A stretch of DNA of 64,000 bases. It comes from an uncultured Thermoplasmata archaeon. GTDB taxonomy: Archaea; Thermoplasmatota; Thermoplasmata; Halarchaeoplasmatales; Halarchaeoplasmataceae. The stretch is taken from contig CAYWJQ010000006.1 in the NCBI GenBank assembly GCA_964458595.1, forward strand, positions 69,776-133,775, in the 5' to 3' direction. The position numbers and the translations under genes are program-made. Below are positions 3,417-19,386 of the stretch, one piece after another. The number at the start of each line of letters is the position of its first letter. Position 1 is the first letter of the stretch. Under the pieces are notes generated by a model. That model searched no databases. It was not told where the DNA came from and was given only the letters and a program-made list of their open reading frames with translations.

Positions 3417-3417
3417 C

Positions 3418-4113: not shown

Positions 4114-4126
4114 CTATATCACTTTT

Positions 4127-4564: not shown

Positions 4565-4576
4565 ATTTTTTACCTC

Positions 4577-5788
4577 CTAAATTCTTTCATAATCTGTTAT
4601 TCCATTTTCTAGAACTAGCTTTAATTTCGGACCCAAATTGAGTCTGAACCATCCATTCAATCCGTTACCGATGACTAAACTCCCGGCGACATCGATACCT
4701 CCTAATCGACTCCCCAACTCGTCTTCGATCGTCTGCACGAAGTTACCATCGGTATCGAAAACATCTATATGAGATCTAGAGTCGACAACATAAATTCGAG
4801 GTTCTGTAAAGTTTTGATCGCTGACGGTTATATTCGTCGGACTAGAGAGTTTCCCTCCGGAGATCAAATCTGTATGTGTGCTTCCGTTCAGAGCGTATCT
4901 TTCCACGCTATTAGAAGTTTTATTCACTATATAGATATGATCGCTAACATATATGTCGATCGCGCCATCCAGATTTGTTACCGCGGTATCATGATAGCTA
5001 CCATCTAGATTATACCTATCCACATGATCGTTACCGTCTAATACGTAAATATAATCTTGACTATTCTCATCAGTGACTGATATAGCCCTAGGGGAGGTCA
5101 ACTCACCGCCGTTAGCTATAAACTTGACTCCGTTTTTACCTTTAAGGTTAAATTTATCTATATGATTTTGATTATCGATAGCGAAAAGATTGCTGTAATT
5201 AGAAGAAACATCGGTAGCGTTATCCAAAACTCCTCCGTCTATAGTGTTTATCAAGTTATTTTTGTGATCATAAACCGAGATATTACCTCTATCTTCAACA
5301 TTTCCGTCTTCGATCACGTAAGTATAATTAGAATTAGTGCTGATCGGACCCGGGCGTACGATCCCCTTGCTGATTTTAATTTTTATTCTTTCGCTTATAT
5401 TTGATTTGAATTCCAGATCGATATTTTTCAATCTTATCTTTAGATCCTCTTCAGGCGGCCAGTGATATCCTTTACTTTCTAGGAGATCATAGCTAACATT
5501 TTCAGGATCTATTATTTTTCCGTCCAACATCACGTCGCTTTTCGTGGCGTTCAGAACGGTCGATCCAGTGTTTTTGACCTCTATCACAGTTTCATTATTT
5601 GTTCTATTGTAGAGAACGGACTGTATCTTTATATCCGTCTGCTGTCGAGATATCCTTCGTTCTGAACTGTTTTGTATCTGGGTCTCAAAACTTTCCATAC
5701 TGGAATAGAATGCGCCGGACAGGACCGAGAAAGTGACGATCAACGCCACAAATATTATCCCGCTAGAGCCCGCTACTGAGAAGCCCAT
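4577..5788 (-). CDS. flaF: FlaF(ArlF)-like protein with C-terminal NHL-repeat-like beta-propeller
   Basis: N-terminal TM plus KNTGST flagellin-like domain; C-terminal repeats of type SP-x-I-x-V-x-D-x(n)-IYVxD-x-N-x-hxxFxxxG (e.g. LTSPRAISVTDENSQDYIYVLDGNDHVDRYNLDGSY, LSSPTNITVSDQNFTEPRIYVVDSRSHIDVFDTDGNF); 403 aa, much longer than typical FlaF/FlaG. Confidence 0.55.
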   Translation of the reverse strand: MGFSVAGSSGIIFVALIVTFSVLSGAFYSSMESFETQIQNSSERRISRQQTDIKIQSVLYNRTNNETVIEVKNTGSTVLNATKSDVMLDGKIIDPENVSYDLLESKGYHWPPEEDLKIRLKNIDLEFKSNISERIKIKISKGIVRPGPISTNSNYTYVIEDGNVEDRGNISVYDHKNNLINTIDGGVLDNATDVSSNYSNLFAIDNQNHIDKFNLKGKNGVKFIANGGELTSPRAISVTDENSQDYIYVLDGNDHVDRYNLDGSYHDTAVTNLDGAIDIYVSDHIYIVNKTSNSVERYALNGSTHTDLISGGKLSSPTNITVSDQNFTEPRIYVVDSRSHIDVFDTDGNFVQTIEDELGSRLGGIDVAGSLVIGNGLNGWFRLNLGPKLKLVLENGITDYERI

Positions 5789-8700
5789 CTTTCTTTCACC
5801 ACCTCTTCGTCCTTATCTATCGGATGGACATTATCTCCGATGCTTATTTCGCTGCCATCGAACAGGAGTTCTCCACCATATCCGATCTCATCCTCTATAT
5901 GAACATTTTCTGACAATTTCACGTCTCCTCGGCAAGAAACTCTATTCACTTTGGTGTTTTTTTCCAAGATGACTTTTTCCTCCGCTTCTATATCGTTTAC
6001 TTCACTGCCTCTAGAGATCAGCACGGTTTTACCTTCTATTTTTCCACCGACTTTACAATCTTCACCGATATTCACGTCTCCCGATTCCGACGTCACGTCA
6101 TCCTGTATCTCGGTGCCTTCATTGATCTTTATATCACCTTCAGCGCTCAGAGAGCCCTCAACGTTGACATCATTCTCTATCTCGACATCGCTCTCTGATG
6201 CGATATTCCCCGATATCTCGGATTCGGGTTCAAGTTTTATCTCCTCTTCAGAATGGATTGTGCTGGTTTCGTCTTCTTCCGTTTTTTCTTCAGGTTCAGA
6301 AGTTAGATACTCCTCTTGGGTGATCTCTTCTGCCTCTTTTTGGTCTGATTCTTCCGTTTCTTCAGAGAGATCCTCAGAACCTACTTTGGCTTTTATATTC
6401 TCGGGTTCTTCGATCAATTCTTCCTCTTTCTCTACCACTTCCATCACTTCGTCCATCTCTTCTTCTAGATTTTCTTCAGGCTCGGGTCCTTCTTCAGACT
6501 TTTCTATCGAAGGTACCTCTTCTTCTTCGATATCTTCGTCTATTTCTCCAGTTCTTTCACTTGTCTCCTCGCCTGTCTTTTCTTTTATTTCCTCCAGATC
6601 ACCGATATCCTCTTCTCTTATTTCTTCCTCATCAGCTACTTCTCGACTTTCTCTTCCTTCTTTTTTCAAATCCTCTATCTCGTCCTTTAAGGAATCGATC
6701 TCACTCTCTAGATTTTTTATCATGTCCATCAATGTGGATTCTTCTGTTTCCTGTTTTTCTTTCTCTTCTTCGGTAACTTCGGTGATTTCTTCTTCGGGAG
6801 ATACTGCCTCTTCTATCTCTTCACTCTTTTCTTCAGTTTCTGGGAACCGAGGGGTTTTGATTTCCGCTTCTCCAGTTGGTTCCTCCGTTTCCTTTTCTTC
6901 ACTTGGGACTTCTTCAGTTATCTCTTCGGTTTCCTCCTCTACCGTAGTTTCTGGCTCACTTGCTTCCAGTTTTTCTTCTCTCTCGGTCGTTTCGATCTCT
7001 TCGAGAGGCTCGGTTTCCGCCCCTTCTTCTACAGAGACGGTTCCTTCGATTGCCTCTTCTTTTTCTGGCGATTCTCCCTTGATCTCTTTCATATCCTCTC
7101 TTAATCGATCTATCTCTTTCTCTAGATTTCGTATAGCCTCGATGATGGCAGAAGGTTCTTCTTGTGTCTCGTCTCTCTCCTCTTCTATATCTTCTTCTAG
7201 TTCCTTTATATCTTCCAATGTTTCTTTCTCTTCTTCGAAGGTCTCCATCTTTTCCTTTATATCTTTAGCTCTCTCTGGCTCTACGTCCGTTTCTTCTTCC
7301 TCTGTCTCCTTCAATTTTTCTAGCTCTTTTTTCAACATCCTATTCTCTTCTTTTAGTCCCTCAATAGCTTCCATTATCACGGAGGAATCCATAGTATCCG
7401 ATACTTCGGGTATGGTCTTTTCGTTGATCCTTTCGACCTTTTTTTCAAGACTCCTTTCTTGGTCCTCTAAGAATTGCATCATCCTTCTTACCTTGGAAAC
7501 GAGATGTTCTTCTTGTCCTCTCTGAATTCCTTCTCTAGTTTCTTCGGAAAGTTCTTCTTTCTTCTTCACCTCTAGATCCAGCTCACTTTTGATCAAGTCT
7601 ATATTTTCGTCCTCCATATCATCTGGATCGACAACGATCATGAATATGGTGGTCTTCACGGTTATCTGGTCCTGGAGAGATTGGATGAAATGGATGACCG
7701 TCGATTCGGGATTGTTTGAAAGTAGATAACCGATACCGTCTAGAAGGATTATCCCATCGTCTTCTGAGATGAATCTCTCTATCGTCAGTCCAAGTAGATC
7801 CAATTCATCAGGGCCTATAGCGATATCTTCACTAGAAGATGAAAGCCATCCGTATTCTACTCCGGTCATGTCGTACTTTTCTTTCACGTCGTCAGGATGT
7901 TTTCTAAGTAAACACAGCCCTGATCTTTCTTTAACTAGATCTTGGAAAACTTCATATGGGAACTCTTCATCAGATGTTTCTAAAAGGTACATCTTTCCAT
8001 CTTCGAGTTCCTCTAACAGTTTTTCACTAGACAGACCTCCTTCTTTTTCTTCTCCCACTGGACTCTGAGTCATCTCCATTTCTTGAGGTTCCTGCTTAGA
8101 GACTGCGGGTCCCGGCTCTTGGATACTTTTCTGGCTTTTTTCTTCCTGAGCTGGTTGTTGAGTCGGCTGCTGGGGTTCCGCTTCAGTCTTTTTAGGTTCT
8201 TCTACCTGTGTCTGAGACTGTTGGGCGGTCTGTGGTTCTTGGGATGGTTGTTGGAGGGGTGCAGTTTCTTTCTTTTTAGGTTCTTCTACCTGTGTTTGAG
8301 GCTGTTGTGGGGGCTGAGCTTCTTGAGTGGGCTGTTCAGGCTGAGTCTCAGGCTCCTGTGGCTCTGGAGTTTCCGGTTGCTCTGGTTCTGGGGAAGGTGG
8401 TTGTTCTTCCTGTTGTTCTGACGCCCCTTCCATCGGAGGTTCCGGACCTTCTCCACCCTCCGGACCTCCGATATCGGGCATCTCGGGAGATTCTTCAGGT
8501 TCCTCTTCCTCTGGAGGTTCTACGAGTTCATCGAGAGGGGATTCTTCGGAAGTTTCTTCACTCTCTTCTTCGGAAGAACCACCGAAATCCATGCTGTCCC
8601 AATCCTCTTCTTCGCCGCCTCCGGAGCCGCCCTCTCCGCTGCTTAGACCTCCACCCTCTTCGAGGAAGGGGTTGAATTCGGCCGTTACCATCTCATAAAC

Positions 8701-9045
8701 GTCCAATAACTGACTGATATCTTCTTCAAGATCGTTTACTCTTTCTTCGATATCGTCGACCGTGTCGTTCATCGTCTCTACTTTGTTTTCTACTTCACGT
8801 ATATCGTCTCGATTTCTATCTATATCGTCTCTAACATCGGGTGCTACACCCATACCTCCACCTTCTCCTCCCTGTGGTCCGATACCTTCATCTTCATCCA
8901 TATCGGCACCCATCGGACCCATTCCGCCCTCTTCTTCGTCTGCATCTATAATATCATCTATATCGCCTTCCGATCCTTCTTCGGCTTCGTTTTCTTCTTC
9001 TTCTTCCTCGTCATCTTTTCCTAACAACTTTCCGAAGTCTACCAT
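5773..9045 (-). CDS. Giant acidic mosaic protein in the FlaC/D/E position (coiled coil, P/Q/E-rich linker, DUF835-like domain, E/K-rich coiled coil, C-terminal beta-helix-like repeats)
   Basis: 1090-aa ORF overlapping flaF-like start by 16 bp; N-terminal motif YEMVTAEFNPF; central domain KMYLLETSDEEF...ILLDGIGYLLSNNPESTVIHFIQSLQDQ homologous to the C-terminus of the 26209-30207 ORF; C-terminal alternating V/I-x-G/D repeats. FlaC/D/E relationship is inferred from position. Confidence 0.6.
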   Translation of the reverse strand: MVDFGKLLGKDDEEEEEENEAEEGSEGDIDDIIDADEEEGGMGPMGADMDEDEGIGPQGGEGGGMGVAPDVRDDIDRNRDDIREVENKVETMNDTVDDIEERVNDLEEDISQLLDVYEMVTAEFNPFLEEGGGLSSGEGGSGGGEEEDWDSMDFGGSSEEESEETSEESPLDELVEPPEEEEPEESPEMPDIGGPEGGEGPEPPMEGASEQQEEQPPSPEPEQPETPEPQEPETQPEQPTQEAQPPQQPQTQVEEPKKKETAPLQQPSQEPQTAQQSQTQVEEPKKTEAEPQQPTQQPAQEEKSQKSIQEPGPAVSKQEPQEMEMTQSPVGEEKEGGLSSEKLLEELEDGKMYLLETSDEEFPYEVFQDLVKERSGLCLLRKHPDDVKEKYDMTGVEYGWLSSSSEDIAIGPDELDLLGLTIERFISEDDGIILLDGIGYLLSNNPESTVIHFIQSLQDQITVKTTIFMIVVDPDDMEDENIDLIKSELDLEVKKKEELSEETREGIQRGQEEHLVSKVRRMMQFLEDQERSLEKKVERINEKTIPEVSDTMDSSVIMEAIEGLKEENRMLKKELEKLKETEEEETDVEPERAKDIKEKMETFEEEKETLEDIKELEEDIEEERDETQEEPSAIIEAIRNLEKEIDRLREDMKEIKGESPEKEEAIEGTVSVEEGAETEPLEEIETTEREEKLEASEPETTVEEETEEITEEVPSEEKETEEPTGEAEIKTPRFPETEEKSEEIEEAVSPEEEITEVTEEEKEKQETEESTLMDMIKNLESEIDSLKDEIEDLKKEGRESREVADEEEIREEDIGDLEEIKEKTGEETSERTGEIDEDIEEEEVPSIEKSEEGPEPEENLEEEMDEVMEVVEKEEELIEEPENIKAKVGSEDLSEETEESDQKEAEEITQEEYLTSEPEEKTEEDETSTIHSEEEIKLEPESEISGNIASESDVEIENDVNVEGSLSAEGDIKINEGTEIQDDVTSESGDVNIGEDCKVGGKIEGKTVLISRGSEVNDIEAEEKVILEKNTKVNRVSCRGDVKLSENVHIEDEIGYGGELLFDGSEISIGDNVHPIDKDEEVVKERWASQ
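7570..8000 (-). other. DUF835-like domain inside the giant archaellum-operon protein
   Basis: About 140-aa segment with strong similarity to the C-terminal domain of the IleRS-like ORF (shared LL..G.EYL / IQS.KDQ pattern); family name recalled from memory, needs HMM confirmation. Confidence 0.5.
8186..8310. repeat. Two-copy tandem repeat (about 83-bp period) inside the giant gene, encoding repeated QVEEPKK...PQQP peptide
   Basis: tttttaggttcttctacctgtgt(c/t)tgag(a/g)ctgttg occurs at about 8190 and again at about 8273. Confidence 0.7.
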
Positions 9046-9107
9046 ATCTTACCACCTTCCAGCACAAATATGAATTTGGCATCTCACCTTATTTAAACTC
9101 TTCCGTA

Positions 9108-9785
9108 TCATTTCAGATTCACCTTCCTCGAAGTGTAAACTGAAGGAGTAGTGAAGGAGATCTGAGTGGATTGACCCGTCTGAGGGATGAGTTTGATATC
9201 TACGGGCGTATTTGGTTCGAGATCGAGACCTATTGCATTAGCGTCGATGTAAATCTTTACCAAGGTGCCCTGTTCCATCACATTGGATTCGGCATAAACA
9301 CCTTCAGGATCTCTCAGTACCTCGGTCGTAAAATTATCTTTATCCGCTCCGGTCGGATCATCGACAGTTGAGTTGTGAAGTAGCTCGCCTGTCGCGTTTC
9401 CATCGTCTATTATTATTACAACATCGTCCATATCTAAAGGTCCACTTCCCGCCTGAAGACGGACTATTATCTCTACAACCTGTATATTTTTCTTCGTTGG
9501 ATTACTTGATTTTCCGTTTTTCTTTCTATCTCCTACGACCGATAGCGTATTCATACCGGTGCTCACCTCTGAAAGAGCTTGATCGGCTGTACTTTCCGAT
9601 TGATTCTGAAGTTTTGTCACCGTGTCAACTAAGACTCCAGCGACGATCGCCGTTATCAGTATGGTAGCTATCAACAGCATCAGTGAACTTACCCCAGTAG
9701 ACCCGGAGTCGTCTTTAGATAGACGGGTCTCTCTGTACGGGGAGGACTCTTGAAATAACTCAGTCTCTCTTAAGTCCTTAAGCAT
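9108..9785 (-). CDS. Divergent archaellin-like protein (class III signal peptide), first gene of the minus-strand accessory operon
   Basis: Hydrophobic N-terminal helix SGSTGVSSLMLLIATILITAIVAGVLVDTVTKLQ and C-terminal IKLIPQTG..TTPSVYTSRKV resembling the archaellin C-terminus [27 protein letters not shown]; long N-terminal extension, so start is uncertain. Confidence 0.7.
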   Translation of the reverse strand: MLKDLRETELFQESSPYRETRLSKDDSGSTGVSSLMLLIATILITAIVAGVLVDTVTKLQNQSESTADQALSEVSTGMNTLSVVGDRKKNGKSSNPTKKNIQVVEIIVRLQAGSGPLDMDDVVIIIDDGNATGELLHNSTVDDPTGADKDNFTTEVLRDPEGVYAESNVMEQGTLVKIYIDANAIGLDLEPNTPVDIKLIPQTGQSTQISFTTPSVYTSRKVNLK

Positions 9786-10053
9786 TATGATAAACAGGTC
9801 CGATTATCATATTATATTTAATGTCGTGATTATCTCTAGAGATAATAGCCTTCAGAAGTAAAAAAGATCGATAAGCTTATCTGAACGACTATATTAATGT
9901 CTTGATAAAATATAAGTATTTACACGATGTTATTAGAGCTGATAATAAGATCTGTTTTTCTAAAAAGATAAACCTATCTTATAAACGGAGTTGATTCTCT
10001 GTAGAAATAACCTTCTTATATAATTGATATTTGAAAACTTTTAGGATAATTGC

Positions 10054-10074
10054 TTCCGAATTTATATAATCGAT
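10054..10074 (+). promoter_or_regulatory. BRE/TATA-like promoter element of archaellin 1
   Basis: ttccgaatttatataatcgat about 50 nt upstream of ATG 10119; the same element recurs before archaellins 2, 3 and 5; aggaga SD-like motif about 7 nt before the start. Confidence 0.6.
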
Positions 10075-10118
10075 TAGGGTGGTGATTAAACTAGAGTATC
10101 CGAAAGGAGATAGTAAAG

Positions 10119-10727
10119 ATGAAAAAACTAAAACGAAAAGATGAAGAAGGGGCGATGGGCGTTGGGACGCTCATCATATTCATAGCCATGGTTCTAGTCT
10201 CGGCAGTGGCGGCCAGTGTACTCATCGACACAGCTAATAAGCTCCAACAGCAGGCAGAGAAAACTGGTGATCAGGCGATAAGAGAAGTCTCTACATCATT
10301 CATTGTAAAGGGTATTTTTGGATACGATGCCTCGAGTGGAGATGAAAGTCCAAATGAGATAGGGAACATATCTTTAAAAGTAGGTTTGGCAGCAGGTGCC
10401 CCTGCACAAAATCTTAATCAGACAGTGATCCAGATTACCAATGATACTAGTGAAGAGAATTTAGTAGCAGCAGGTGATAGTAGTACATCGGCAAATGGTG
10501 CTCATTATTCCTGGAATCCGATAATAGAACAACAGGGAAATGATAATCAGTATGTAGAACAAGGGGATCTTTATAATGTAACGATAAATATGAATAAGGC
10601 CTTAGGTGGACCAGTAGGAACACAGGCAGAAATATCCATTCAGATAATACCCAAGCACGGGACACCAACCTACGAAAAGGTGACAACGCCGCCCGTGATG
10701 ACTTCAAAAATTGTCGATCTCACCTAG
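10119..10727 (+). CDS. flaB: Archaellin (FlaB/ArlB family) 1
   Basis: Class III signal peptide [43 protein letters not shown]; conserved C-terminus [29 protein letters not shown]. Confidence 0.9.
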
Positions 10728-10737
10728 ATCTATCACT

Positions 10738-10765
10738 TAAAAACCTTTATTTTTTCATTTATCTG
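10738..10765 (+). terminator. T-rich terminator-like element after archaellin 1
   Basis: aaaaacctttattttttcatttatc directly after the stop; similar motif follows each archaellin transcription unit. Confidence 0.45.
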
Positions 10766-10914
10766 ATCTTGAAAAAATTTGTTTTCATCTTCACCCTAAA
10801 GTCTTATTGGTCTTGATAATAGAACAAAAAAATAGGCTTTGGTAAACAGAGTTTATTCTATAATTATGGAACAACTCTTAGTAATTAGAATTTAAAAATT
10901 AAAAGGATAATTTC

Positions 10915-10935
10915 TTCCGAATTTATATAATCGAT
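10915..10935 (+). promoter_or_regulatory. BRE/TATA-like promoter element of archaellin 2
   Basis: ttccgaatttatataatcgat, identical to the element at 10054. Confidence 0.6.
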
Positions 10936-10975
10936 AAGGGAGGTGATTAAGATAGTAAAAAGAAAGGAGGATACA

Positions 10976-11575
10976 ATGGCAGGAACAAAACGATTAAAAC
11001 GAAAAGATGAAGAAGGCGCGATGGGCGTAGGAACGCTCATCATATTCATAGCCATGGTTCTAGTGTCGGCTGTGGCGGCCAGTGTACTTATCGATACCGC
11101 TAATAAGCTCCAACAGCAGGCAGAGAAAACAGGCGATCAGGCGATCCGAGAAGTGGCGACCTCGTTTATAGTGAAGGATGTTATAGGATACAATGGAAAA
11201 GACGGTGAGATAGGAAATATATCTTTGAAAGTGGGCCTAGCGGCCGGAGCGCCCGCTCAGTCCTTGAACCAGACGGTTATACAGGTTCAGACCGATTCGA
11301 ATCAGGCGCATCTTACGGCTGCGGCTCAAGGATATGGTCCTGGATCTAACAATTATTCATGGCGAGAGGTCATCGAACAGGAAGATACTTTCAACCAGTA
11401 CTTAGAACAAGGAGATATAGTGAATATAACGATAAATCTGTATGAGATGTTCGGTAAAACAGTCGGGACTCAAAGCGAGATCTCCATCCAGATAATACCA
11501 AAGCATGGGACGCCAACCTATGAAGAGATAACGACGCCGCCCGTGATGGTAAGCAAGATCGTCGAGTTCACCTGA
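10976..11575 (+). CDS. flaB: Archaellin (FlaB/ArlB family) 2
   Basis: Same conserved N- and C-termini as archaellin 1; start placed at ATG 10976 (GGAGG 7 nt upstream) rather than the GTG at 10943 in the ORF track, which lies almost inside the promoter element. Confidence 0.88.
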
Positions 11576-11586
11576 GGATAGATACA

Positions 11587-11615
11587 GAAAACCTTTCCCT
11601 CTTTTCATTATTATA
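11587..11615 (+). terminator. T-rich terminator-like element after archaellin 2
   Basis: aaaacctttccctcttttcattattat. Confidence 0.45.
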
Positions 11616-11697
11616 TTGCACACGTGCGTGAAGATTGGTTATATTTTTCTATTTTTTCAAAATTGATAATCAGGGATGAATAATCAGAGAAATAATC

Positions 11698-11721
11698 GTT
11701 TCCTAATTTATATAGTGAATA
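11698..11721 (+). promoter_or_regulatory. BRE/TATA-like promoter element of the archaellin 3-4 pair
   Basis: cgtttcctaatttatatagtgaat, followed by conserved leader atcatgctgtatccgagaggagataaaacatg. Confidence 0.6.
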
Positions 11722-11762
11722 AGAGAGGTGATTATCATGCTGTATCCGAGAGGAGATAAAAC

Positions 11763-12401
11763 ATGAGAAGGATAAAACGAGAAGACGAAAAAGGAGCGAT
11801 GGGCGTAGGAACGCTCATCGTATTCATCGCAATGGTACTGGTAGCCGCGGTAGCGGCCAGTGTACTTATCGACACAGCGAACAAGCTACAGCAGCAGGCA
11901 GAGCAAACAGGTGATCAAGCGATCAGGGAAGTATCGACCGCATTCCAAGTACACGATGTATTTGGATATAATGCTGCTGGTGACAATAAGATAGAGAATC
12001 TAACGCTTAAAGTAGGTTTAGCGGCAGGAGCGCCAAGTCAAGACCTGAATCAAACTGTAGTTCAGGTTTCAGGTCCTTCTAGCGAAGCGAATCTACTAGC
12101 AGTAGATAGCGACAATTATGATCTTGGCGAAGGAGCAGATAGTGATTCGTATGCGATAGACAATATAATCGAGCAAGAAGATGGTGGATCTGTAGAGTTT
12201 TCAGATGTCCGCTATTTAGAACAAGGAGATCTAGTGAACATAACGATAGCTATAGATGAAACTTCAGTAGGTGGGCCAGGCACTGGGATAGGTCCTCAAA
12301 CAGATCTATCGATCCAGATAATGCCGAAGCACGGCACGCCGACCTACGAGGAAATAACCACACCACCAGTGATGACAACGAAGATAGTTGATTTAAACTA
12401 A
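11763..12401 (+). CDS. flaB: Archaellin (FlaB/ArlB family) 3
   Basis: [61 protein letters not shown]; variable middle; conserved C-terminus. Confidence 0.9.
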
Positions 12402-12410
12402 GGTGATAAC

Positions 12411-13022
12411 ATGAGAAGGATAAAAAGAGAAGATGAAAAAGGAGCGATGGGCGTAGGAACGCTCATCGTATTCATCGCGATGGTGCTAGTAGCTGCGGTA
12501 GCAGCTAGCGTTTTGATCGATACCGCGAACAAGTTACAGCAGCAGGCAGAACAGACAGGAGATCAAGCGATCAGGGAAGTATCCACCGCTTTTACCGTTA
12601 AAGACGTCTATGGAGTAGACGGAGGAACTTATGGTGATGAAAACGGCAAGATAGACACGTTATACATGAAGATAGGCCTAGCGGCAGGAGCTCCTGCTCA
12701 GGACATGGACCAGACGATCATACAGCTGAAAAATGATACTGCAGAAGCAAATCTACAGAACGGAAGTAGTGCAGGATCTTCTGATTATACAATAGACCAG
12801 GTCATCGAACAAAGTGATCCTGAAGATGGTTACTTAGAACAGGGTGACATCCTCGAGATAGAAATAGATGTCACTTCAGCACTAGATGATGGATCGGCTA
12901 CCGTTGGATTAGGTCCACAGGAAGATGTTTCCATACAGATAATACCGAAGCACGGTACACCTACCTACGAACAGATCACCACGCCGCCTACGATAATTAA
13001 CACCCATGTAGACCTAGGTTAG
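12411..13022 (+). CDS. flaB: Archaellin (FlaB/ArlB family) 4
   Basis: N-terminal 60 residues identical to archaellin 3; 9-bp intergenic spacer (ggtgataac), so co-transcribed with archaellin 3. Confidence 0.9.
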   Translation: MRRIKREDEKGAMGVGTLIVFIAMVLVAAVAASVLIDTANKLQQQAEQTGDQAIREVSTAFTVKDVYGVDGGTYGDENGKIDTLYMKIGLAAGAPAQDMDQTIIQLKNDTAEANLQNGSSAGSSDYTIDQVIEQSDPEDGYLEQGDILEIEIDVTSALDDGSATVGLGPQEDVSIQIIPKHGTPTYEQITTPPTIINTHVDLG

Positions 13023-13029
13023 ATGCGAT

Positions 13030-13075
13030 GAAAAACCCTTTCCCTATTATTATTTTTAATTCTTTTTTAATTTAA
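13030..13075 (+). terminator. T-rich terminator-like element after archaellin 4
   Basis: gaaaaaccctttccctattattatttttaattcttttttaattt; near-identical to the element after archaellin 6. Confidence 0.5.
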
Positions 13076-13125
13076 CTCCTCTATTTTCAAAATAACTCCT
13101 CCTCTCTGTTATCGTTGTAGATAAT

Positions 13126-13149
13126 CGTTTCCGAATTTATATAGTGAAT
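13126..13149 (+). promoter_or_regulatory. BRE/TATA-like promoter element of the archaellin 5-6 pair
   Basis: cgtttccgaatttatatagtgaat plus a leader identical to that of archaellin 3. Confidence 0.6.
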
Positions 13150-13191
13150 AGGAAAGATGATTATCATGCTGTATCCGAAAGGAGATAAAAC

Positions 13192-13800
13192 ATGAGAAGG
13201 ATAAAAAGAGAAGACGAAAAAGGAGCGATGGGCGTTGGGACGCTCATCGTGTTCATCGCGATGGTACTGGTAGCCGCAGTAGCGGCTAGTGTACTGATAG
13301 ATACAGCGAACAAGTTACAGCAGCAGGCAGAACAGACAGGAGATCAAGCGATCAGAGAAGTTTCGACCGCATTCCAGGTGCAGGACGTGTTTGGTTATGA
13401 CGCCTCTAGTGGGGGCTTAGAGAATATAACATTGAAGGTAGGCTTAGCAGCAGGTGCACCAGCACAAGATCTGAATCAAACGGTGATACAGATATCTGGA
13501 CCAAGTAATGAAGATAACTTGATCGCACCCCATAACAGCAGTGACTATGCAGATGGTGGTAACTATTATATCAGAGGCATAATCGAACAGGAAGGTGACA
13601 CAGGTACATTCTCAGATGTCCGGTATTTAGAGCAGGGAGATCTTGTTAATATAACAATATCTCTCACTGATAGTGATATAAGTAGTCCAGTAAGCACCCA
13701 GACGGATTTGTCGATCCAGATAATGCCGAAGTACGGAACGCCGACCTATGAAGAGATCACCACGCCGCCAGTGATGACATCGAAGATAGTAGATCTATGA
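13192..13800 (+). CDS. flaB: Archaellin (FlaB/ArlB family) 5
   Basis: Conserved archaellin N- and C-termini. Confidence 0.9.
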
Positions 13801-13813
13801 CAAAGGTGATAAC

Positions 13814-14398
13814 ATGAGAAGGATAAAAAGAGAAGACGAAAAAGGCGCGATGGGCGTGGGAACGCTCATCGTATTTATCGCCATGGTACTGGTAGCCGCG
13901 GTAGCGGCCAGTGTACTGATCGACACAGCGAACAAGTTACAGCAGCAGGCAGAACAGACAGGAGATCAAGCGATCAGAGAAGTTTCGACCTCGTTCACAG
14001 TTAAAGATGCCTACGGACAAGACAACGATGATGATGGCCTGATAGAGGATGTTGTTTTAAAGATAGGATTGGCTGCAGGTGCTCCTGCACAGAACTTAGG
14101 TCAAACGATGCTTCAGCTAAAAAATGATACGGCTGAAACTAACGTTAAAGTCACGAGTACCTCTTACAGTAAAGTGATCGAACAGGATTCTGATGGTCAA
14201 ATAGATTATTTGGAACAGGGAGATATAGTGAAAGTTGAAGTTACAGGTATCGGTACTGCTAGTTATTTCGATACTGGGAATGGTCTTGGTACTCAGCAGG
14301 ATCTTTCCATCCAGATAATACCGAAGCACGGCACGCCGACTTACGAGCAGATAACAACACCACCTACGATAGTAGATCAACACGTAGATCTTACCTAA
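13814..14398 (+). CDS. flaB: Archaellin (FlaB/ArlB family) 6
   Basis: Conserved archaellin N- and C-termini; 13-bp spacer to archaellin 5. Confidence 0.9.
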   Translation: MRRIKREDEKGAMGVGTLIVFIAMVLVAAVAASVLIDTANKLQQQAEQTGDQAIREVSTSFTVKDAYGQDNDDDGLIEDVVLKIGLAAGAPAQNLGQTMLQLKNDTAETNVKVTSTSYSKVIEQDSDGQIDYLEQGDIVKVEVTGIGTASYFDTGNGLGTQQDLSIQIIPKHGTPTYEQITTPPTIVDQHVDLT

Positions 14399-14404
14399 AA
14401 GCGA

Positions 14405-14447
14405 TGAAAAACACCTTTCCCTATTATTATTTTTTAATTCTTTTGAA
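14405..14447 (+). terminator. T-rich terminator-like element after archaellin 6
   Basis: gaaaaacacctttccctattattattttttaattctttt. Confidence 0.5.
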
Positions 14448-14599
14448 TAATGAATCATTTTTGAAGATAAAAGATCTTTTAAAATATTTTGATTATTAGG
14501 CTTCAAAATCATAAGCGAGATAAGATTTCACAATTATTCTAACTGATAATAATCGTCAAAGCTTTATGAATTTCTAGCTAGATAAGTAATGCGTTCTTA

Positions 14600-14662
14600 G
14601 AACAACCCGTTTCCTATTCAAAATGAATATAGGAGAGGTAAACCCCCTAGTGATAAAACATG
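14600..14662 (+). other. Degenerate copy of the archaellin promoter/leader with no archaellin coding sequence downstream
   Basis: ccgtttcctattcaaaatgaatataggagaggtaaaccccctagtgataaaacatg aligns with cgtttcctaatttatatagtgaataagagaggtgatta...gataaaacatg, but the TATA box is disrupted and the following ORF (14660-14869) has no archaellin motifs. Confidence 0.5.
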
Positions 14663-15630
14663 TCCCTAGGTTCCGGGGAATTTACCTCTCTTTTCATCCT
14701 GAACCGGCCCATTTTCTTAGAGCCCTTCAACTTTTCTTTTGATCTCCTGCTCATTTCCGGCGACAAAGAATGTAATCCCTTCCATATCTCTGTTCTTATT
14801 GCAGCACATTATATTCAAACTATCCTTCCAGAACTATATCTGGGCAACAGTGAGATCGGAATCATCTAGTATGAATTTTGATGTACCACAGCACTTCCTC
14901 TGTTCCTTTTGAAATTATCCATCTCAAATTTAAAATCTACTATCTCTTCCGACATCTCTCTCATCTCATCCGGATAATATTCCCCCTGATCCTGGCTATC
15001 AGGTATTATATCCTCAAAACTTTCATTTCCCTCTTTTTCAGCTACCAGCCTATCTTAAACGACTTCACTGCCTTCAATGTTACTCAAAGACGGCAATATT
15101 ACATGAGGAAATAAGTCGTCTTGGAATCTTTTTAATTTTCTTATATTTTTGAAAATAATAATAAGTTAAACCTTAAAGATAGAAAAAACATAAGTTATCC
15201 ATCTACCATTTTAAACATTCAAAATCAAATAAGATCTTTATAGAAAAAATCGAACTCTAAAATAAAAAAAATTTTTTAATTCCGTATGGAAGAATTTTTT
15301 CATTTTCCTTCAAAAACTACTCAATGAAAATTTAATCTAAAATAAAGATGTTTTTCCTCTAATCAACTGGTTTTAGTATATATGAGATCGTTATCGGTTG
15401 CTCGAAATGATGAGTTTTTCTTTCTTTAGTAATCAAGGATGATTATTATAGAGAATAAATCTACTGCGATGTTTTCATCCTTGGTAATCAACCATCTCAA
15501 AAAACATTGATAAATAAACCATATAATCGTATTCAATGATGATTTTCAATGATGATAATTCGAGTGTTTTATCAAGATTGATACCACTTTCGAAATTACT
15601 ATTTATATCGATAATGATATTTCATAACGA

Positions 15631-15655
15631 GAACAGGAATTGATTGCGCCTGTTC
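15631..15655 (+). promoter_or_regulatory. Inverted repeat upstream of the seventh archaellin
   Basis: gaacagg-(11 nt)-cctgttc, about 40 nt upstream of ATG 15696 and just downstream of an A/T-rich tttatat box at about 15602. Confidence 0.3.
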
Positions 15656-15695
15656 GTAATCGCCCTTTATCGGGTGTCTAAGAGGCGGATAGTTT

Positions 15696-16319
15696 ATGAG
15701 ACGACTAAAAAGAAATAGTGAAGTAGAAGACGAAAAAGGTATGATGGGTGTGGGAACCCTGATGATCTTCATAGCGATAGTACTAGTGTCTGCAGTATCT
15801 GCGGGAGTATTCATCCGAACAGTGACGATGTTAAAACAGCAGGCAGAACAGTCCGCGGAAGAAGCGATGGCCGAGGTATCCACTTATATCAAGGTGAGAT
15901 CGATGCTTGGGATAAGAAATAAGACCGGAACCGGTCTCAAGAAGATTTACGTGAACTTGGGAGTAGGTCCGGGTACACCTCCGCAGAACTTAGAAAATCT
16001 GCTGATACAAGTCGATAACGGAGACGCACAAAAAGCCCTAGAATACAGTCCTGATAAAGCAAGCGGAGAGAATTTTACAGCGGTAGCTCTAAAAGATCCT
16101 GAAGGCGAATTCGATAGAGAAGACAACCCGTTGATCTCTAGTGGTACAACTCTGCAGTTGACTTTCAATATAACACAGATCGATGGAAATACGACGGGCT
16201 CTTTCGATCTACCACCACAGACCGAGATGAACATACAGTTCACTCCAAAACACGGTGCGAGTACGATAGAGATATTGGTCACACCTTCGGTTTACCACAA
16301 GGACATAATGCATCTGTAA
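15696..16319 (+). CDS. flaB: Divergent archaellin paralog 7
   Basis: KGMMGVGTLMIFIAIVLVSAVSAGVFIRTVTMLKQQAEQ signal peptide/helix and C-terminal NIQFTPKHGASTIEILVTPSVYHKDIM; distinct promoter and central region. Confidence 0.75.
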   Translation: MRRLKRNSEVEDEKGMMGVGTLMIFIAIVLVSAVSAGVFIRTVTMLKQQAEQSAEEAMAEVSTYIKVRSMLGIRNKTGTGLKKIYVNLGVGPGTPPQNLENLLIQVDNGDAQKALEYSPDKASGENFTAVALKDPEGEFDREDNPLISSGTTLQLTFNITQIDGNTTGSFDLPPQTEMNIQFTPKHGASTIEILVTPSVYHKDIMHL

Positions 16320-16458
16320 AGATAAAAAATAATTTCCCACGACCCTTCATGGGCTGTTTTATCTTTATTTTTCTTGTGATGTTATCCGTTTTGATAATAA
16401 TCTTTGAAAATCATCTTTGATGAAGTTTACATGGAAAATATGAAGCTACAAGAGACGA

Positions 16459-18843
16459 TCAAGATATATAAGTGTAATAAACTCTGATAGCGATCAGTAT
16501 TCCGACGATCACCGCAGCCGCTATCCCTATCCAGAACCATGGGATGATATCTATCCAAGATTGTTCTTCTACTTTGTTCGCACCCTTTATCGTCACATTT
16601 GTGGACTCGGTGACCTCATTGTTTTCCATAGACTCGGCGCTCAAAGTGATCTCGAGATCTTTACCTTCGATGGCACGATATTTAGTCAAGTTAAGGACCG
16701 CATGTCCCATCTCGTCAGGATTTAACCTCATCATGCCTCCTTCGACGAAGGCATATTTACTTCCTTCTTTGACATACACTAGTACTTCTTGATCAGTATT
16801 AGCCAGGTTTGTTACCGTTATATCCACTGTATAGTTCATCTTTCCAGGATTCGAGACCGTCTTCTTCTCAACAGAGAGTGAAAGATCATATGCAGGTTTT
16901 ACTTTTAAAGTGAAATTTCCGGTAACGTTCAATCCTTCTTTATCAAGTGAACTTACTATGAGTTTTATAACATATTCTCCAGCTCTTTGATCACCTTTTG
17001 AATTTACCGAAAAATTAAATCTCTTAGTTTCTCCACTTTTCAAAGCTTCTTCGATCGGATCGTGATCCACTTTCATCGATCCTGGAGTTTTGAAGGAGAC
17101 CTCTACCTCTTGAGGGATGTTTCCATCGTTGGTGAGATTATATGAGAAAGACCCGCTGTTACCTGGATTTACAGCCGTATGATTCGTTACGGGCGTCAAA
17201 CTTAACTTGTAATATCGGATGAATATTTCTTTAGTAATCATGTTGTTTTCGTAAGTTTTTTCTATTTTATTTTTCCCTTCATTCACCACGAAGCTCAACT
17301 TTTGGATGCCCTTTTTCATAACCGTAAAATTGAACTTGAAAGTTTTCGTGGTTTCGGCGTTTATAGATATGTTTATTTCCTTCAGGAAATCTTCATCAAC
17401 GCCGATATATAATCTTCCGGTAGTATTGATATGGGATTGTCCTAGATTTTTGATTTTGACATCCACATCTACTGTAGAATTGAACTCCGGTTCTTTGGGC
17501 TCGATCTTCAGATCAGATACCGTCAAATCCGGCTTGAGTGTTTTTTTGTGATAGATGTCCATAACATCTCGTCTGGAATCCTCCCAGATCAACTGCTGTT
17601 GGTTATGCCTGTCAGTGATCACGATCGGATCGGCGGAATATGAAAATGTGCCCGTGATCCTATAACTTGATTTGACAATATTCCCATCAAGATCTATCTT
17701 TTTTATATAGATATCGTGCGGTATATCGGTGATATTCTTTTTCTTATCTCCAAGATATCGATAATCTCTACTGTCGCTCCAGGAGATATACAGATAGCCG
17801 TCTTTTCCTCTGGAGATCGTAGGTAAAAAGGAGTTCGAGTCATCGTCTCTATCGGTCATCAACGTGTCGTCTATCAGTATCTTCCCTTTAGAACTCAGTT
17901 TTTGATATATCACGTCTCTCTTGTAATTGTGATATCTATCGTCGTCGAAGACCAGGTGTAGGTTACCCTTTTCGTCTCTCGCGAGATCATATCTGTTGAG
18001 TCTGTTGACGACTGTCAGTCTTTTTCTCTCGACCCATGTATTTCCGGCATAATCTATCTTCGTGTAAAAGATCCCGTTGTTATCTTCTATCGGTTCCAAC
18101 CACAGAAGATGTAACTTGCCATCTTCGGTAAGTTTCAGTTTAGGGTCTCGAGACGGGCTGGAAGTATCGGTGATCTGGAATGGAGATATTATATTTTCAC
18201 CTTCACCGTTGATCCTCCTATAGAAGATGTTTTGGGCTCCGTTCTTTTCTTTTTCGTAAAGTAGATGGAATTGGGTATCCCGTCCTCTCACGAAAGTATA
18301 ATTCTTGGGCCCCGCTCTTCCCAGAGAAGTGATAAGTTTTCTCTCTATAAGAGTGGTCACTTCTTCGGCCGAGTAGCGGAGCTTAGAAAAATATAGATCC
18401 CAATCTCCGTTAGTTCGTTCTTCCCACACTATGTATATCTGATTTAAATAAGAGATCACCTTTGGATTCAAAGATCTTTTGCCGTTATCGCTCACTCTAA
18501 AATCGTTTATCAGTTTTTCTCCATCCTTGTTATCGATTTTAACATAGTATATATTCCAGTCTCCCCTCCTGTTATCCTCCCAACAAAGATCGATATCTCC
18601 TCTCTGATCGAGGTCGGTTGATATATTTTGAGAAGTCGAGTTCTTGAAAGTTATACCGTGTCTATCGCTCCAGATCTGAGGGGAACTGAACTCGTTTATC
18701 TCTTCGAAATCTTCTTCTATAACATCATTCAAAATCAAGTGAGAACTGGAGCTTTTCTTCTTTCCTTCTAAAGCTGATAAAACTCCCGCGGTGAAAATCG
18801 AGATTATTAATATTAGAGCCACCAATATTCTCAGTGGTTTCAT
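16459..18843 (-). CDS. Cell-surface protein: signal peptide, beta-propeller-like repeats, CARDB-like Ig-type domains, C-terminal TM anchor
   Basis: N-terminal MKPLRILVALILIISIFTAGVLSA; repeats W-x-D/E-x-R-x-GDW(N/D)IYY; C-terminal WIDIIPWFWIGIAAAVIVGILIAIRVYY; 794 aa. Confidence 0.55.
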   Translation of the reverse strand: MKPLRILVALILIISIFTAGVLSALEGKKKSSSSHLILNDVIEEDFEEINEFSSPQIWSDRHGITFKNSTSQNISTDLDQRGDIDLCWEDNRRGDWNIYYVKIDNKDGEKLINDFRVSDNGKRSLNPKVISYLNQIYIVWEERTNGDWDLYFSKLRYSAEEVTTLIERKLITSLGRAGPKNYTFVRGRDTQFHLLYEKEKNGAQNIFYRRINGEGENIISPFQITDTSSPSRDPKLKLTEDGKLHLLWLEPIEDNNGIFYTKIDYAGNTWVERKRLTVVNRLNRYDLARDEKGNLHLVFDDDRYHNYKRDVIYQKLSSKGKILIDDTLMTDRDDDSNSFLPTISRGKDGYLYISWSDSRDYRYLGDKKKNITDIPHDIYIKKIDLDGNIVKSSYRITGTFSYSADPIVITDRHNQQQLIWEDSRRDVMDIYHKKTLKPDLTVSDLKIEPKEPEFNSTVDVDVKIKNLGQSHINTTGRLYIGVDEDFLKEINISINAETTKTFKFNFTVMKKGIQKLSFVVNEGKNKIEKTYENNMITKEIFIRYYKLSLTPVTNHTAVNPGNSGSFSYNLTNDGNIPQEVEVSFKTPGSMKVDHDPIEEALKSGETKRFNFSVNSKGDQRAGEYVIKLIVSSLDKEGLNVTGNFTLKVKPAYDLSLSVEKKTVSNPGKMNYTVDITVTNLANTDQEVLVYVKEGSKYAFVEGGMMRLNPDEMGHAVLNLTKYRAIEGKDLEITLSAESMENNEVTESTNVTIKGANKVEEQSWIDIIPWFWIGIAAAVIVGILIAIRVYYTYIS

Positions 18844-18916: not shown

Positions 18917-19246
18917 TCAACTGAACGGTCTATGTTCTTCGGTTTTTATGTCTTTCAATCCGATTTTTACTTTTTTCTTTCCTTCCCCGTAATCGATGAA
19001 TTTCAGATCGAGCATAGATTTATACAGGCAGATCTCCTTTCTTTCAGTTTGAATTTTGTCGACCACCTCGAGATAGCCTTTTTCTTCCAATTTAGAAGCT
19101 CGGCGGTAACATTTGGCTAGAGGTATGTTCTGCGTCTGGCTTATCTCTTTGATCGATTTGGCCTTACTTGAACAACTGCCTAAGATCTTTTTTGAAGTAG
19201 GATCTTTCAATATCTGCAATTTTTCTCGGACGTTTTTGGACCTCAT
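18917..19246 (-). CDS. Small winged-helix (ArsR/TrmB-like) transcription regulator candidate
   Basis: 109 aa; HTH-like segment SIKEISQTQNIPLAKCYRRASKLEEKGYLEV. Confidence 0.4.
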   Translation of the reverse strand: MRSKNVREKLQILKDPTSKKILGSCSSKAKSIKEISQTQNIPLAKCYRRASKLEEKGYLEVVDKIQTERKEICLYKSMLDLKFIDYGEGKKKVKIGLKDIKTEEHRPFS

Positions 19247-19386
19247 GTAGATTAAAATCTATCCGTATCACTATAAATATTCACTTCTAATTATCCTCTT
19301 CGATAATGCAGTTTTGAAATCCCGTTTTGGTTTGAAAAAGATAAAAAAGTTTATTTTCACCATGTATATGTGCAAGTGTGAGATAG

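Follow-up and report, generated by a model that had tools for sequence, protein, structure and literature searches.

Introduction

Archaellin genes usually number one to seven (PMC8821640), and tandem archaellins with conserved 5′ ends have long been known. Here we analyze a 64 kb stretch of DNA from an uncultured Thermoplasmata archaeon (hereafter the window, abbreviated W in ortholog comparisons) that carries an archaellum (arl) locus with eight archaellin genes, A0 to A7. The locus is essentially ordinary and represents standard archaellin biology. It very probably holds a modular archaellin family evolving by birth and death, in which two bicistronic units, each made of an alpha-class and a beta-class gene, derive from an old tandem duplication and the control sequences have been kept by selection. 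Beyond annotation it matters little: its value is as a record of a whole archaellum locus from a Thermoplasmata lineage that is uncultured and apparently both motile and chemotactic.

The archaellum of Oxyplasma meridianum is the only studied Thermoplasmatales archaellum (PMC12448462). Its arlBCDFGHIJ cluster comes from the same class as our locus, and a single archaellin with a 26-residue leader heads the operon (PMC12448462), compared with ~28 residues predicted for A0. However, O. meridianum has one archaellin only, whereas the present lineage adds a divergent array of up to nine genes and A7, and a giant ArlC-like fusion stands in place of separate ArlC and ArlD. Because A0 matches O. meridianum ArlB in position, in leader and in its match to the structure 8RH5, the divergent array appears to be an addition to the ancestral layout.

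In Methanococcus voltae and M. maripaludis, arlA is transcribed alone beside the co-transcribed arlB1-B2-B3, and ~50 N-terminal residues are highly conserved (PMC10117864, PMC8821640), resembling what we describe here. The Methanococcus archaellins lie upstream of arlC-J in the same orientation and operon, whereas at our locus only A0 does so; the main array runs divergently and has its own set of four promoters. The minor archaellin ArlB3 of Methanococcus is conserved between species and has a specialized hook-like role (PMC10117864, PMC8821640). It offers a plausible analogy for the role of A7, of A0 or of both. The adjacent, co-expressed and distinct archaellins ArlB1 and ArlB2 of Methanocaldococcus villosus (PDB 7OFQ), which differ in their numbers of glycosylation sites, are comparable to the pairs described below, and 7OFQ is the best match of the A3 model. 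Their alternation in the filament has been demonstrated, whereas at our locus the gene arrangement in tight alpha-beta pairs is compatible with alternation, the pair is duplicated, and the beta partner stands by itself in a relative.

Halobacterium salinarum arlA1-A2 and arlB1-B3 share with our locus tandem paralogs of ~195 residues, near-identical stretches broken by short hypervariable regions, more than one transcription unit and several products in the filament (PMC10117864). H. salinarum belongs to another phylum and has five genes at two loci, whereas here eight genes lie at one locus, six of them in a single array. For H. salinarum, a repeated promoter-pair-terminator module has not been described. 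Haloarcula marismortui ArlA2/ArlB and Halorubrum lacusprofundi ArlB1/ArlB2 are likewise divergent paralogs, used alternatively, depending on salinity, or as a stabilizing heterodimer, and variation among archaellins has been connected with the evasion of viruses (PMC10117864, PMC7349177). Unlike the present locus, which is known from its sequence, these systems consist of two genes and have no duplicated multi-gene cassettes.

In the arl clusters of Pyrococcus furiosus and other Thermococcales, a B recognition element (BRE) and TATA box precede the first archaellin, and poly-T tracts after archaellin genes are internal terminators that tune expression (PMC10665913). Elements of both kinds are found here. 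T. kodakarensis has up to five tandem archaellins (PMC10117864). The Thermococcales cluster has one primary start site and EarA sites, whereas each unit here has a full promoter, and RATAATCR and TTATC-N-GATAA are present instead of the EarA motif TACATA.

Gene content of the locus

Open reading frames (ORFs) were mapped for 1-22 kb and read against the raw sequence. Judged by its genes, the region is the filament-gene part of a euryarchaeal-type arl locus. A0 is the first gene of a minus-strand arl motor operon that runs from 9785 down to 94, and the genes for ArlF, ArlG, ArlH, ArlI and ArlJ lie directly downstream of it. A1 to A6 form a divergent plus-strand array of ORFs of ~200 codons (10119-14398) with four putative transcription units, A1, A2, A3-A4 and A5-A6. 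The spacers within the two pairs are 9 nt (ggtgataac) for A3-A4 and 13 nt (caaaggtgataac) for A5-A6. All eight archaellin ORFs match Pfam PF01917 (Arch_flagellin) with E values of about 1e-24 to 6e-35 and 85-121 bits, compared with a gathering score of 29.5 bits, and the matches cover positions 1-158 of the 162 of the profile. A profile built from the eight genes and used in a six-frame search of the 64 kb finds exactly eight archaellin genes.

A previous sequence-only reading of this DNA had proposed eight archaellin paralogs in an archaellum locus, with an array divergent from an operon that itself starts with an archaellin and with tight pairs at spacers of 9 and 13 bp. The Pfam matches, the profile search and the identification of ArlF/G/H/I/J bear out these proposals, and that reading was accurate in its coordinates and sequences. 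It did not contain the two old classes in each cassette, the homogenized 5′ ends, the separate classes of A0 and A7, or the pseudogene between A6 and A7.

An old tandem duplication of a two-gene cassette

The cassettes containing A3-A4 and A5-A6 align from ATAATCGTTTCC (11693 and 13122) to about TTTTTAATTCTTTT in the T-rich tail (13063 and 14442). The start of the alignment is sharp, and the sequences upstream are unrelated. In bootstrapped neighbor-joining trees of the central and C-terminal part of the archaellins, A3 groups with A5 (90%) and A4 groups with A6 (92%). These boundaries and groupings support the view that A3-A4 and A5-A6 are duplicates of one two-gene unit with its own promoter and terminator, as had been proposed from the sequence. 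The same proposal had called the duplication recent, and on this point our results differ.

Synonymous divergence (pS) was obtained from Nei-Gojobori synonymous counts. Beyond codon 60, pS is saturated, with values of 0.70 for A3-A5 and 0.76 for A4-A6 (0.74 and 0.80 in the central part). Over whole genes it is 0.60 and 0.66, respectively, compared with 0.56-0.78 for orthologs between W and L014. L014 is the nearest sampled relative, with amino-acid identities of 95% for ArlI, 95% for ArlH, 79.5% for A7 and 78% for A0. Because neutral sites are saturated, the tandem duplication took place long ago. The promoter and leader of the two units are nearly identical (66 of 71 positions), as had been noted from the sequence. 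The 5 differences (7%) compare with 37-45% at the adjacent N-terminal synonymous sites, indicating that the regulatory ends are conserved, not young.

A recent tandem duplication, in which the near-identical regulatory ends are simply young sequence, would account for the identity of promoter and leader, for the near-identical 3′ element, for the sharp homology boundaries with the same gene order, and for A3+A5 and A4+A6 being lineage-specific sister pairs. We consider it very improbable, since synonymous sites beyond the first 60 codons (pS 0.70-0.80) are as diverged as those of W-L014 orthologs, the promoter has diverged far less than the synonymous sites next to it, and the modules are conserved between species. 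The case is a worked caution: near-identical promoters and terminators around paralogs can reflect selection on a regulatory module and not youth, and synonymous sites and other species settle the matter.

An artefact of metagenome assembly, by collapse or expansion of repeats, had been named as a danger to the interpretation of this array. The source is a metagenome-assembled genome (MAG), and short-read assembly is known to struggle with tandem repeats. However, the internal repeats of the array are only 85-86% identical, with a longest stretch of 364 nt, and neither collapse nor expansion is seen. The array is identical base for base (100% over 7-9.5 kb) in three MAG assemblies (GCA_905333805.1, GCA_905333825.1 and GCA_905333435.1), all its ORFs are intact, and comparable arrays are present in relatives. 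The probability of an artefact is negligible. Recent duplication and assembly artefact are thus both effectively excluded.

Conserved control modules

In each transcription unit of the array, an ATAAT box, BRE/TATA (TTCCGAA-TTTATATA) and a leader GGTGATTA...GTATCCGAAAGGAGAT that includes a Shine-Dalgarno sequence precede one or two ORFs, and AAAAACC(C)TTTC and oligo-T come after them; together these parts form the module. With up to two mismatches, the motif TTCCGAATTTATATA occurs four times in the window, compared with 0.38 expected, and 0 of 100 shuffles reach four. The four sites are at the heads of A1, A2, A3 and A5. The ATAAT box, BRE/TATA, GGTGATTA and GTATCCGAAAGGAGAT-N-ATG can be aligned in 13 transcription units drawn from the window, L014, L005 and L013. 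The leader 16-mer ATCATGCTGTATCCGA(A/G)AGGAG is near letter-perfect (11736-11765, 13165-13194, L014 and L020:7960-8000) across genomes whose synonymous sites are saturated. In addition, a solitary archaellin on another contig of the L014 MAG carries both the promoter/leader and the 3′ modules.

AAAAACC(C)TTTC and T-runs follow every main-array unit in four genomes. These 3′ elements are T-rich and unstructured, as expected of archaeal oligo-T termination. A near-identical T-rich element had been described after each cassette; it is present there but is not specific to the cassettes, since it follows all four units of the array. Because the same modules are conserved in other genomes, the near-identity of promoter, leader and 3′ element points to purifying selection.

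Both promoters of the divergent region between A0 and A1 are nearly identical in L014, where the A1 promoter is almost identical to that of the positional counterpart L14_g1. The A7 promoter region is also nearly identical in L014. Six putative promoters (A0, A1, A2, A3, A5 and A7) would drive the eight genes. The A0 mRNA is probably leaderless or nearly so, because the TATA box lies only 25 nt before the ATG. In each bicistronic unit, the spacer holds a GGTGAT ribosome-binding site 3 nt before the ATG of the second gene. The members of a pair should be co-transcribed and made in similar amounts. For a group without a genetic system, the module (ATAAT box, BRE/TATA, 16-nt leader and AAAAACCCTTTC/oligo-T) could serve as a source of promoter and terminator parts and as the signature of a regulon.

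Two further leader features were considered and set aside. The leader of A3 and A5 encodes a 9-codon upstream ORF (MLYP[RK]GDKT) with a stop that overlaps the main start (ATGA). We do not claim a function for it, as the upstream ATG is missing in A1, L14_g1 and L13_g2, and the small hairpin there is weak (z -2.1 and -2.7). The hairpin in the 5′ untranslated region (UTR) of A7 has no significant fold (z -1.0 and -1.5).

Alpha and beta archaellins

Each pair consists of one alpha-class gene (A3 or A5, related to A1 and A2) and one beta-class gene (A4 or A6). In trees of the central region, A1-A6 are monophyletic in 0% of bootstraps, and A4 and A6 lie outside a clade of A1, A2, A3, A5 and genes of L013 and L014 (93%). 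A2 and L13_g4 are sisters (98%), a pair of trans-species orthologs. A search with the class-specific part of A4 finds the beta-class relatives P0012 and P0013, and the clade A4+A6+P0012 has 68.5% support. These trees place the split between alpha and beta before the sampled relatives radiated.

A0 and A7 are separate, conserved orthologous classes. A0 orthologs (52-79% identity) head the same operon in all relatives. A7 has orthologs in L014 (L014_A7, 79.5%), L005 (L5_B7, 51%) and L013 (L13_A7), and W_A7 and L14_A7 are sisters in 100% of bootstraps. By tree and position, the archaellins are thus shown to fall into three old classes, A0, A7 and the tandem family A1-A6.

The 5′ ends of A3-A6 behave differently from the rest of the genes. 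The first 59 residues, signal peptide included, are identical among the four proteins, with at most one difference in some alignments. At the DNA level, all pairings, across classes too, show 85-96% identity over the first ~190 nt, and identity then drops to 40-77%. N-terminal pS within A3-A6 is 0.29-0.48, lowest for A5-A6 and A3-A6, compared with ~0.65 between genomes and 0.55-0.85 for A3-A6 against A1/A2. The N-terminus of the unlinked beta gene P0012 has visibly diverged. Because 5′ identity spans the classes, N-terminal pS is low within A3-A6 and the P0012 N-terminus has diverged, the pattern indicates an old, partial gene conversion of 5′ ends among neighboring copies.

Archaellin arrays of relatives

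Loci of relatives, labeled uncultured Thermoplasmata archaeon, were anchored on the A0 ortholog. Their arrays hold between one and nine genes (one in L015, two in L002, three in L013, five in L014 and nine in L005). In L005 (JGI 3300022700, 2884-9653, minus strand), the nine genes form three class1-class2-class3 triplets with internal spacers of 0-9 nt. Each class is monophyletic with 100% bootstrap support, and the A7 ortholog lies between the second and third triplets. With A0 and A7, L005 has 11 archaellin genes at one locus; together with the eight described here, this slightly extends the usual range.

L014 has five monocistronic array genes, one pseudogene and a solitary beta gene. In the pseudogene, L014_g6, one nucleotide is deleted after the ATG and a CAG has become TAG. 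The solitary gene is the beta-class ortholog P0012, which has housekeeping genes around it and lies on a different contig of the L014 MAG. The L013 array is also monocistronic. For g3-g5 of L014, N-terminal pS is only 0.07-0.21 and the upstream regions are identical, indicating that amplification and conversion are ongoing there. The range of one to nine array genes, the triplet cassettes and the pseudogene in relatives together argue for birth-and-death evolution.

The cassettes might be more than an outcome of birth and death. Each could be a kit, i.e., a co-transcribed, stoichiometric set of two or three non-interchangeable archaellin classes for a heteropolymeric filament like that of M. 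villosus ArlB1/ArlB2, and archaellins of this lineage would evolve by whole kits. Duplicated kits would then be alternative surfaces for different conditions or for virus escape, in the manner of serotype-like or ecoparalog switching, and through local gene conversion the 5′ ends, which form the core, would stay compatible, so that one motor would accept any kit. In accordance, every cassette copy keeps one member per class, as do the three triplets of L005 with their monophyletic classes, and the spacers are tight (0-13 nt). N-glycosylation sequons number 1-4 per protein and follow the classes, with 3-4 at conserved sites in alpha genes and 1-2 elsewhere in beta genes, and unequal glycosylation is also the clearest difference between ArlB1 and ArlB2 (PMC8821640). 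The sequence upstream of the shared core differs between the A3 and A5 units, which would permit separate regulation. In addition, 7OFQ is the best structural match of A3, and heterodimeric and ecoparalog archaellins are known (PMC7349177, PMC10117864). However, an obligate co-transcribed partner pair is not found across the relatives: the beta-class ortholog of the closest relative is solitary and on another contig, and the L014 and L013 arrays are monocistronic, as are A1 and A2. Co-transcribed tandem archaellins are also common without proven alternation. We therefore regard the kit explanation as unlikely. If it were correct, the specification and variation of heteropolymeric archaella could be studied at this locus as a natural system.

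At the other extreme, the copies could be interchangeable and kept for dosage alone, with strong promoters supplying subunits and the central divergence due to neutral drift. All copies keep intact ORFs and the same strong promoter/Shine-Dalgarno module, the ratio of nonsynonymous to synonymous divergence (dN/dS) stays far under 1 and gives no hint of positive selection, and copy number varies freely among relatives (1 to 9), with pseudogenes. Against this, speciation has not erased the old alpha and beta division or the orthologs shared between species, A2/L13_g4 for example, which suggests non-redundant roles. Moreover, redundant copies in a converting array would be expected to homogenize over their full length, not only over the 5′ 190 nt. 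Pure redundancy is about as unlikely an account of the locus as the kit.

In the birth-and-death model that we favor, the whole alpha-beta unit was duplicated in tandem in this lineage long ago. Promoter, leader and terminator were then held by purifying selection, the first ~190 nt, encoding signal peptide and core helix, were partly homogenized among neighbors, and the head-domain loops drifted apart. The family evolves by birth and death, giving rise to single-gene, pair and triplet cassettes and to a relocated solitary beta gene. From what is known of the family, the preproteins would be cut after the conserved glycine by the ArlK/PibD peptidase and polymerized by ArlI/ArlJ, with the invariant N-terminal helices in the filament core and the variable, probably N-glycosylated heads on the surface. 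Several paralogs would serve as bulk subunits, and A0 and A7 are probably specialized.

Several points weigh against this model or limit its detail. First, pS near saturation cannot order events finely; an old duplication is a safe reading, and a duplication as old as the W/L014 split is an approximate one. In fact the duplication postdates that split, because A4 and A6 are sisters inside the beta clade. Second, the trees are neighbor-joining trees on ~175 columns, and support for the beta clade is only 68.5%. Third, the low N-terminal pS may partly reflect constraint at the codon or mRNA level, and each comparison has ~35 synonymous sites with a standard error of ~0.08. Fourth, promoters, starts, terminators, pair co-transcription and signal-peptide cleavage are all read from sequence and its conservation. 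Finally, the three assemblies that reproduce the array are 100% identical, probably come from the same study and are not fully independent.

One of these assemblies, GCA_905333825.1, holds both a contig 100% identical to the array (L017) and a different, L005-type arl locus (L022) with a 230-aa A0, a 910-aa ArlC-like protein and a tight archaellin pair. This means either that two related populations are mixed in the bin or that the organism carries both arl loci.

Structure and variable regions of the archaellins

The archaellins also match NCBIfam NF006325 ('flagellin'; E 1e-29 to 1e-39), below its strict 210-bit subfamily cut-off, and TIGR02537 (arch_flag_Nterm) is above its cut-off for A3, A4 and A7. 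A class III signal peptide, defined as a short charged leader ending in glycine and followed by a hydrophobic helix of ~20 residues, is predicted in all eight proteins. The junction directly follows KG in A1-A6, lies between SG and STGVSSLMLLIATILITAIVAGVLVDT in A0, and lies between KG and MMGVGTLMIFIAIVLVSAVSAGVFIRT in A7. No peptidase gene was found in the surveyed parts of the window.

A0 matches PDB 5O4U (1e-16) and 8RH5 (O. meridianum ArlB, 2e-16). A3 aligns over its full length to 5O4U (1.7e-28), 5Z1L and 7OFQ_A, which are the archaellins of P. furiosus and M. maripaludis and M. villosus ArlB1, respectively. An AlphaFold2 model of A3 from a 23-sequence alignment (predicted local distance difference test, pLDDT, 81.4) has a helix at 15-58 and nine strands. 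In Foldseek, the top 17 matches of this model are all archaellins (7OFQ first, and 8RH5, 5Z1L, 9EQ7 and 5O4U), with E values of 4e-15 to 9e-7 and template modeling scores of 0.45-0.61. As modeled, A3 has the archaellin fold, with a long N-terminal alpha-helix and a beta-sandwich head.

Amino-acid identity is 77% for A3 and A5, 73% for A4 and A6, and 72% for A1 and A2, and A7 is 36-40% identical to A1-A6. Among A1-A6, 79% of the N-terminal 62 columns and 55% of the C-terminal 31 columns are invariant, compared with 18% in the center, consistent with the earlier description of ~60 conserved N-terminal and ~30 conserved C-terminal residues around a variable center. According to entropy and gap profiles, the most variable, indel-rich segments are 70-78, 114-128, 138-156 and 164-180, which lie between predicted strands of the head domain. 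The conserved blocks 79-86, 181-187 and 194-199 correspond to predicted strands. Two well-conserved blocks, one of them YLEQGD, lie inside the variable center.

The hypervariable center had been attributed to diversification of an exposed surface. Solved filaments have the helices in the core and the heads on the outside (PMC12448462), so surface exposure is a reasonable reading, and the variable segments do fall in predicted loops of the head. The attribution is supported only in part: the center also holds the two conserved blocks, and no positive selection is demonstrated in the archaellins (dN/dS 0.1-0.3), although with dS saturated the test is without power.

Region between A6 and A7

A seventh archaellin had been placed after a 1.3-kb gap. 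Its position is correct and the gap is 1297 nt long, but it is not empty: it contains a pseudogene and a conserved hairpin element. The pseudogene is a decayed copy of a gene of ~160 aa; it has no start codon and is interrupted by two in-frame stops and two frameshifts. It matches an intact 164-aa ORF at the same position in L014 (4279-4773; tblastn E 9e-37) with 63% and 49% identity in two frames. The N-terminus of the intact L014 ORF weakly resembles small antitoxin-like and hypothetical proteins (NF010249, E 0.007).

The hairpin element lies between the last archaellin of the array and the convergent (pseudo)gene. Its 15-bp stem GGAGAGGTAAACCCC / GGGGAATTTACCTCTC (~14631-14696) has T-runs on both strands and a free energy of -34.7 kcal/mol (z -4.2). 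The element is ~85% identical to its L014 counterpart although neutral sites are saturated between the two genomes. It carries leader-like blocks, namely CGTTTCCTA, TGAATA, AGAGGT and GATAAAACATG, with identity to the A3/A5 leader in blocks that include GATAAAACATG; this 11-mer occurs four times compared with 0.05 expected. To judge from these features, the element could be a bidirectional terminator, a small RNA or a relic of an ancient archaellin promoter. The idea that an orphan third promoter at 14600-14662 records the recent loss of a third cassette was dropped, as this sequence is conserved in L014 and is part of the strong hairpin between convergent genes.

Feature coordinates and motor operon

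The features of the locus are listed in Table 1.

Table 1 Coordinates of archaellin genes, control elements and motor genes in the window
Feature	Coordinates	Strand	Evidence or detail
A0 archaellin (ArlB position)	9108..9785	-	PF01917 E 1.1e-27; ~28-residue leader predicted from alignment to A1-A6
A0 promoter	~9811-9822	-	TATA ATTAAATATAAT, 25 nt before ATG; palindrome TTATCTCTAGAGATAA 9830-9845
Divergent promoter region A0/A1	9786..10118	.	Sequence, motif statistics, L014 comparison
A1 promoter	10045-10068	+	ATAAT + TTCCGAATTTATATA; leader GTATCCGAAAGGAGAT 10096-10111
A1 archaellin, alpha-like, monocistronic	10119..10727	+	PF01917 4e-31
A1 3′ motif + T6 run	10739-10755	+	
A2 promoter + leader	10906..10975	+	Motif and cross-genome alignment; ATAAT + TTCCGAATTTATATA 10906-10929; GGAGGA Shine-Dalgarno 10966-10972
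A2 archaellin, monocistronic	10976..11575	+	PF01917 9e-32; start ATG, ORF call extends to GTG 10943
A2 3′ motif	11588-11597	+	T-runs to 11657
Cassette 1, 1371 nt	11693..13063	+	A3 alpha 11763-12401; A4 beta 12411-13022
Cassette 1 control elements	11691-11714 (promoter)	+	Leader to 11762; 3′ motif AAAAACCCTTTCC 13031-13043; T-runs 13053-13068
Cassette 2, 1321 nt	13122..14442	+	A5 alpha 13192-13800; A6 beta 13814-14398
Cassette 2 control elements	13120-13143 (promoter)	+	Palindrome TTATCGTTGTAGATAA 13109-13124; leader to 13191; 3′ motif 14407-14419; T6 run 14430-14435
Conserved non-coding hairpin element	14540..14700	.	~85% identity to L014 4768-4940(-)
Pseudogene in A6-A7 gap	14700..15111	-	tblastn with intact L014:4279-4773 product
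A7 promoter + long 5′ UTR (~60-70 nt, predicted)	15590..15695	+	Near-identity to L014; promoter cGAAAttactaTTTATATcg ~15590-15609; 5′ UTR with GAACAGG-N11-CCTGTTC
A7 divergent archaellin, monocistronic	15696..16319	+	PF01917 6e-24
A7 terminator-like hairpin + T-run	16336-16372	+	
ArlC-like protein, 1090 aa	5773-9045	-	FlaC_arch (PF05377, E 5e-10) + DUF835 + bactofilin-like
ArlF-like protein, 403 aa	4577-5788	-	NCBIfam ArlF 2e-28, 99 bits, below cut-off
ArlG	4127-4564	-	NCBIfam NF052591 1e-34, 119.5 bits, above 110-bit cut-off
ArlH, KaiC-type ATPase	3418-4113	-	Pfam
ArlI, T2SSE	1767-3416	-	Pfam
ArlJ, T2SSF	94-1752	-	Pfam

The ArlC-like protein is highly acidic and occupies the ArlC/D/E position. 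It consists of FlaC_arch (81-127), a long P/Q/E-rich linker, DUF835 (359-489), an E-rich coiled region and a bactofilin-like C-terminus (956-1046). No Arch_fla_DE (ArlD/E) domain is detected in this ORF at E <= 0.01. Relatives have a conserved counterpart of 857-1147 aa, but for L002 and L006 the ORF calls give no more than a DUF835 ORF of 590-593 aa.

The ArlF-like protein is 403 aa long, compared with the usual ~140, and has ~260 extra C-terminal residues; in relatives it is 397-403 aa. The extension weakly matches six-bladed beta-propellers of the NHL/YWTD type (PDB 6D69, E 2e-4; PF17170, E 7e-4), and a single-sequence AlphaFold model of the protein has a pLDDT of 36.6. To judge from these matches, the extension may serve as an envelope anchor, which would be of interest given that no special ArlF motif emerged from a study of S-layer-less Thermoplasmatales (PMC12448462).

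Only one ATPase is encoded in canonical arl operons. Here a second T2SSE-family ATPase (535 aa; L001 13330-14937, just beyond position 1 of the window) directly follows arlJ, as it does in L002, L005 and L008. A few kb past it lie cheF, cheB, cheY and a PAS histidine kinase (same contig as the window, CAJOVR010000004.1 of GCA_905333805.1).

Possible operator and neighboring genes

The EarA motif TACATA is found on neither strand of any intergenic region of the locus. RATAATCR has 12 of its 32 window matches within 5.9 kb around the promoters (P 1.5e-5, uncorrected for AT-rich spacers), and the palindrome TTATC-N3-8-GATAA occurs 5 times compared with 1.1 expected. Sites of these motifs at 9801-9845, 11665-11736 and 13109-13165 flank the TATA boxes of A0, A3 and A5. 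Another, at 19291-19306, precedes the promoter of a 109-aa winged-helix gene (18917-19246, minus strand), the synteny of which is kept in L014 and L005. The motifs are a candidate shared operator and the winged-helix protein a candidate regulator; we offer both as leads only.

A 794-aa CARDB-domain surface protein (16459-18843, minus strand) that carries a C-terminal transmembrane anchor keeps synteny with A7 in the window and in L014 and L005, and may belong to the same cell-surface neighborhood. The 11-mer GATAAAACATG at the start of its gene was considered as a sign of co-regulation, but the CARDB promoter is without the archaellin BRE/TATA module, and we treat the match as incidental.

Scans for sigma-70 promoters and hairpin terminators gave 21 matches compared with 19.4 expected and are uninformative for an archaeon. 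A look-up of the window ORF 52096-52752 gave no record. Rfam has no known RNA family in the locus. Its sole match in the window is a tRNA of 122 nt (42411-42532, plus strand), long enough for an intron; tRNA introns are common in archaea. A 1332-aa isoleucyl-tRNA synthetase (26209-30207, plus strand) carries a C-terminal extension of HHH_5 and DUF835, the latter domain also being present in the ArlC-like protein.

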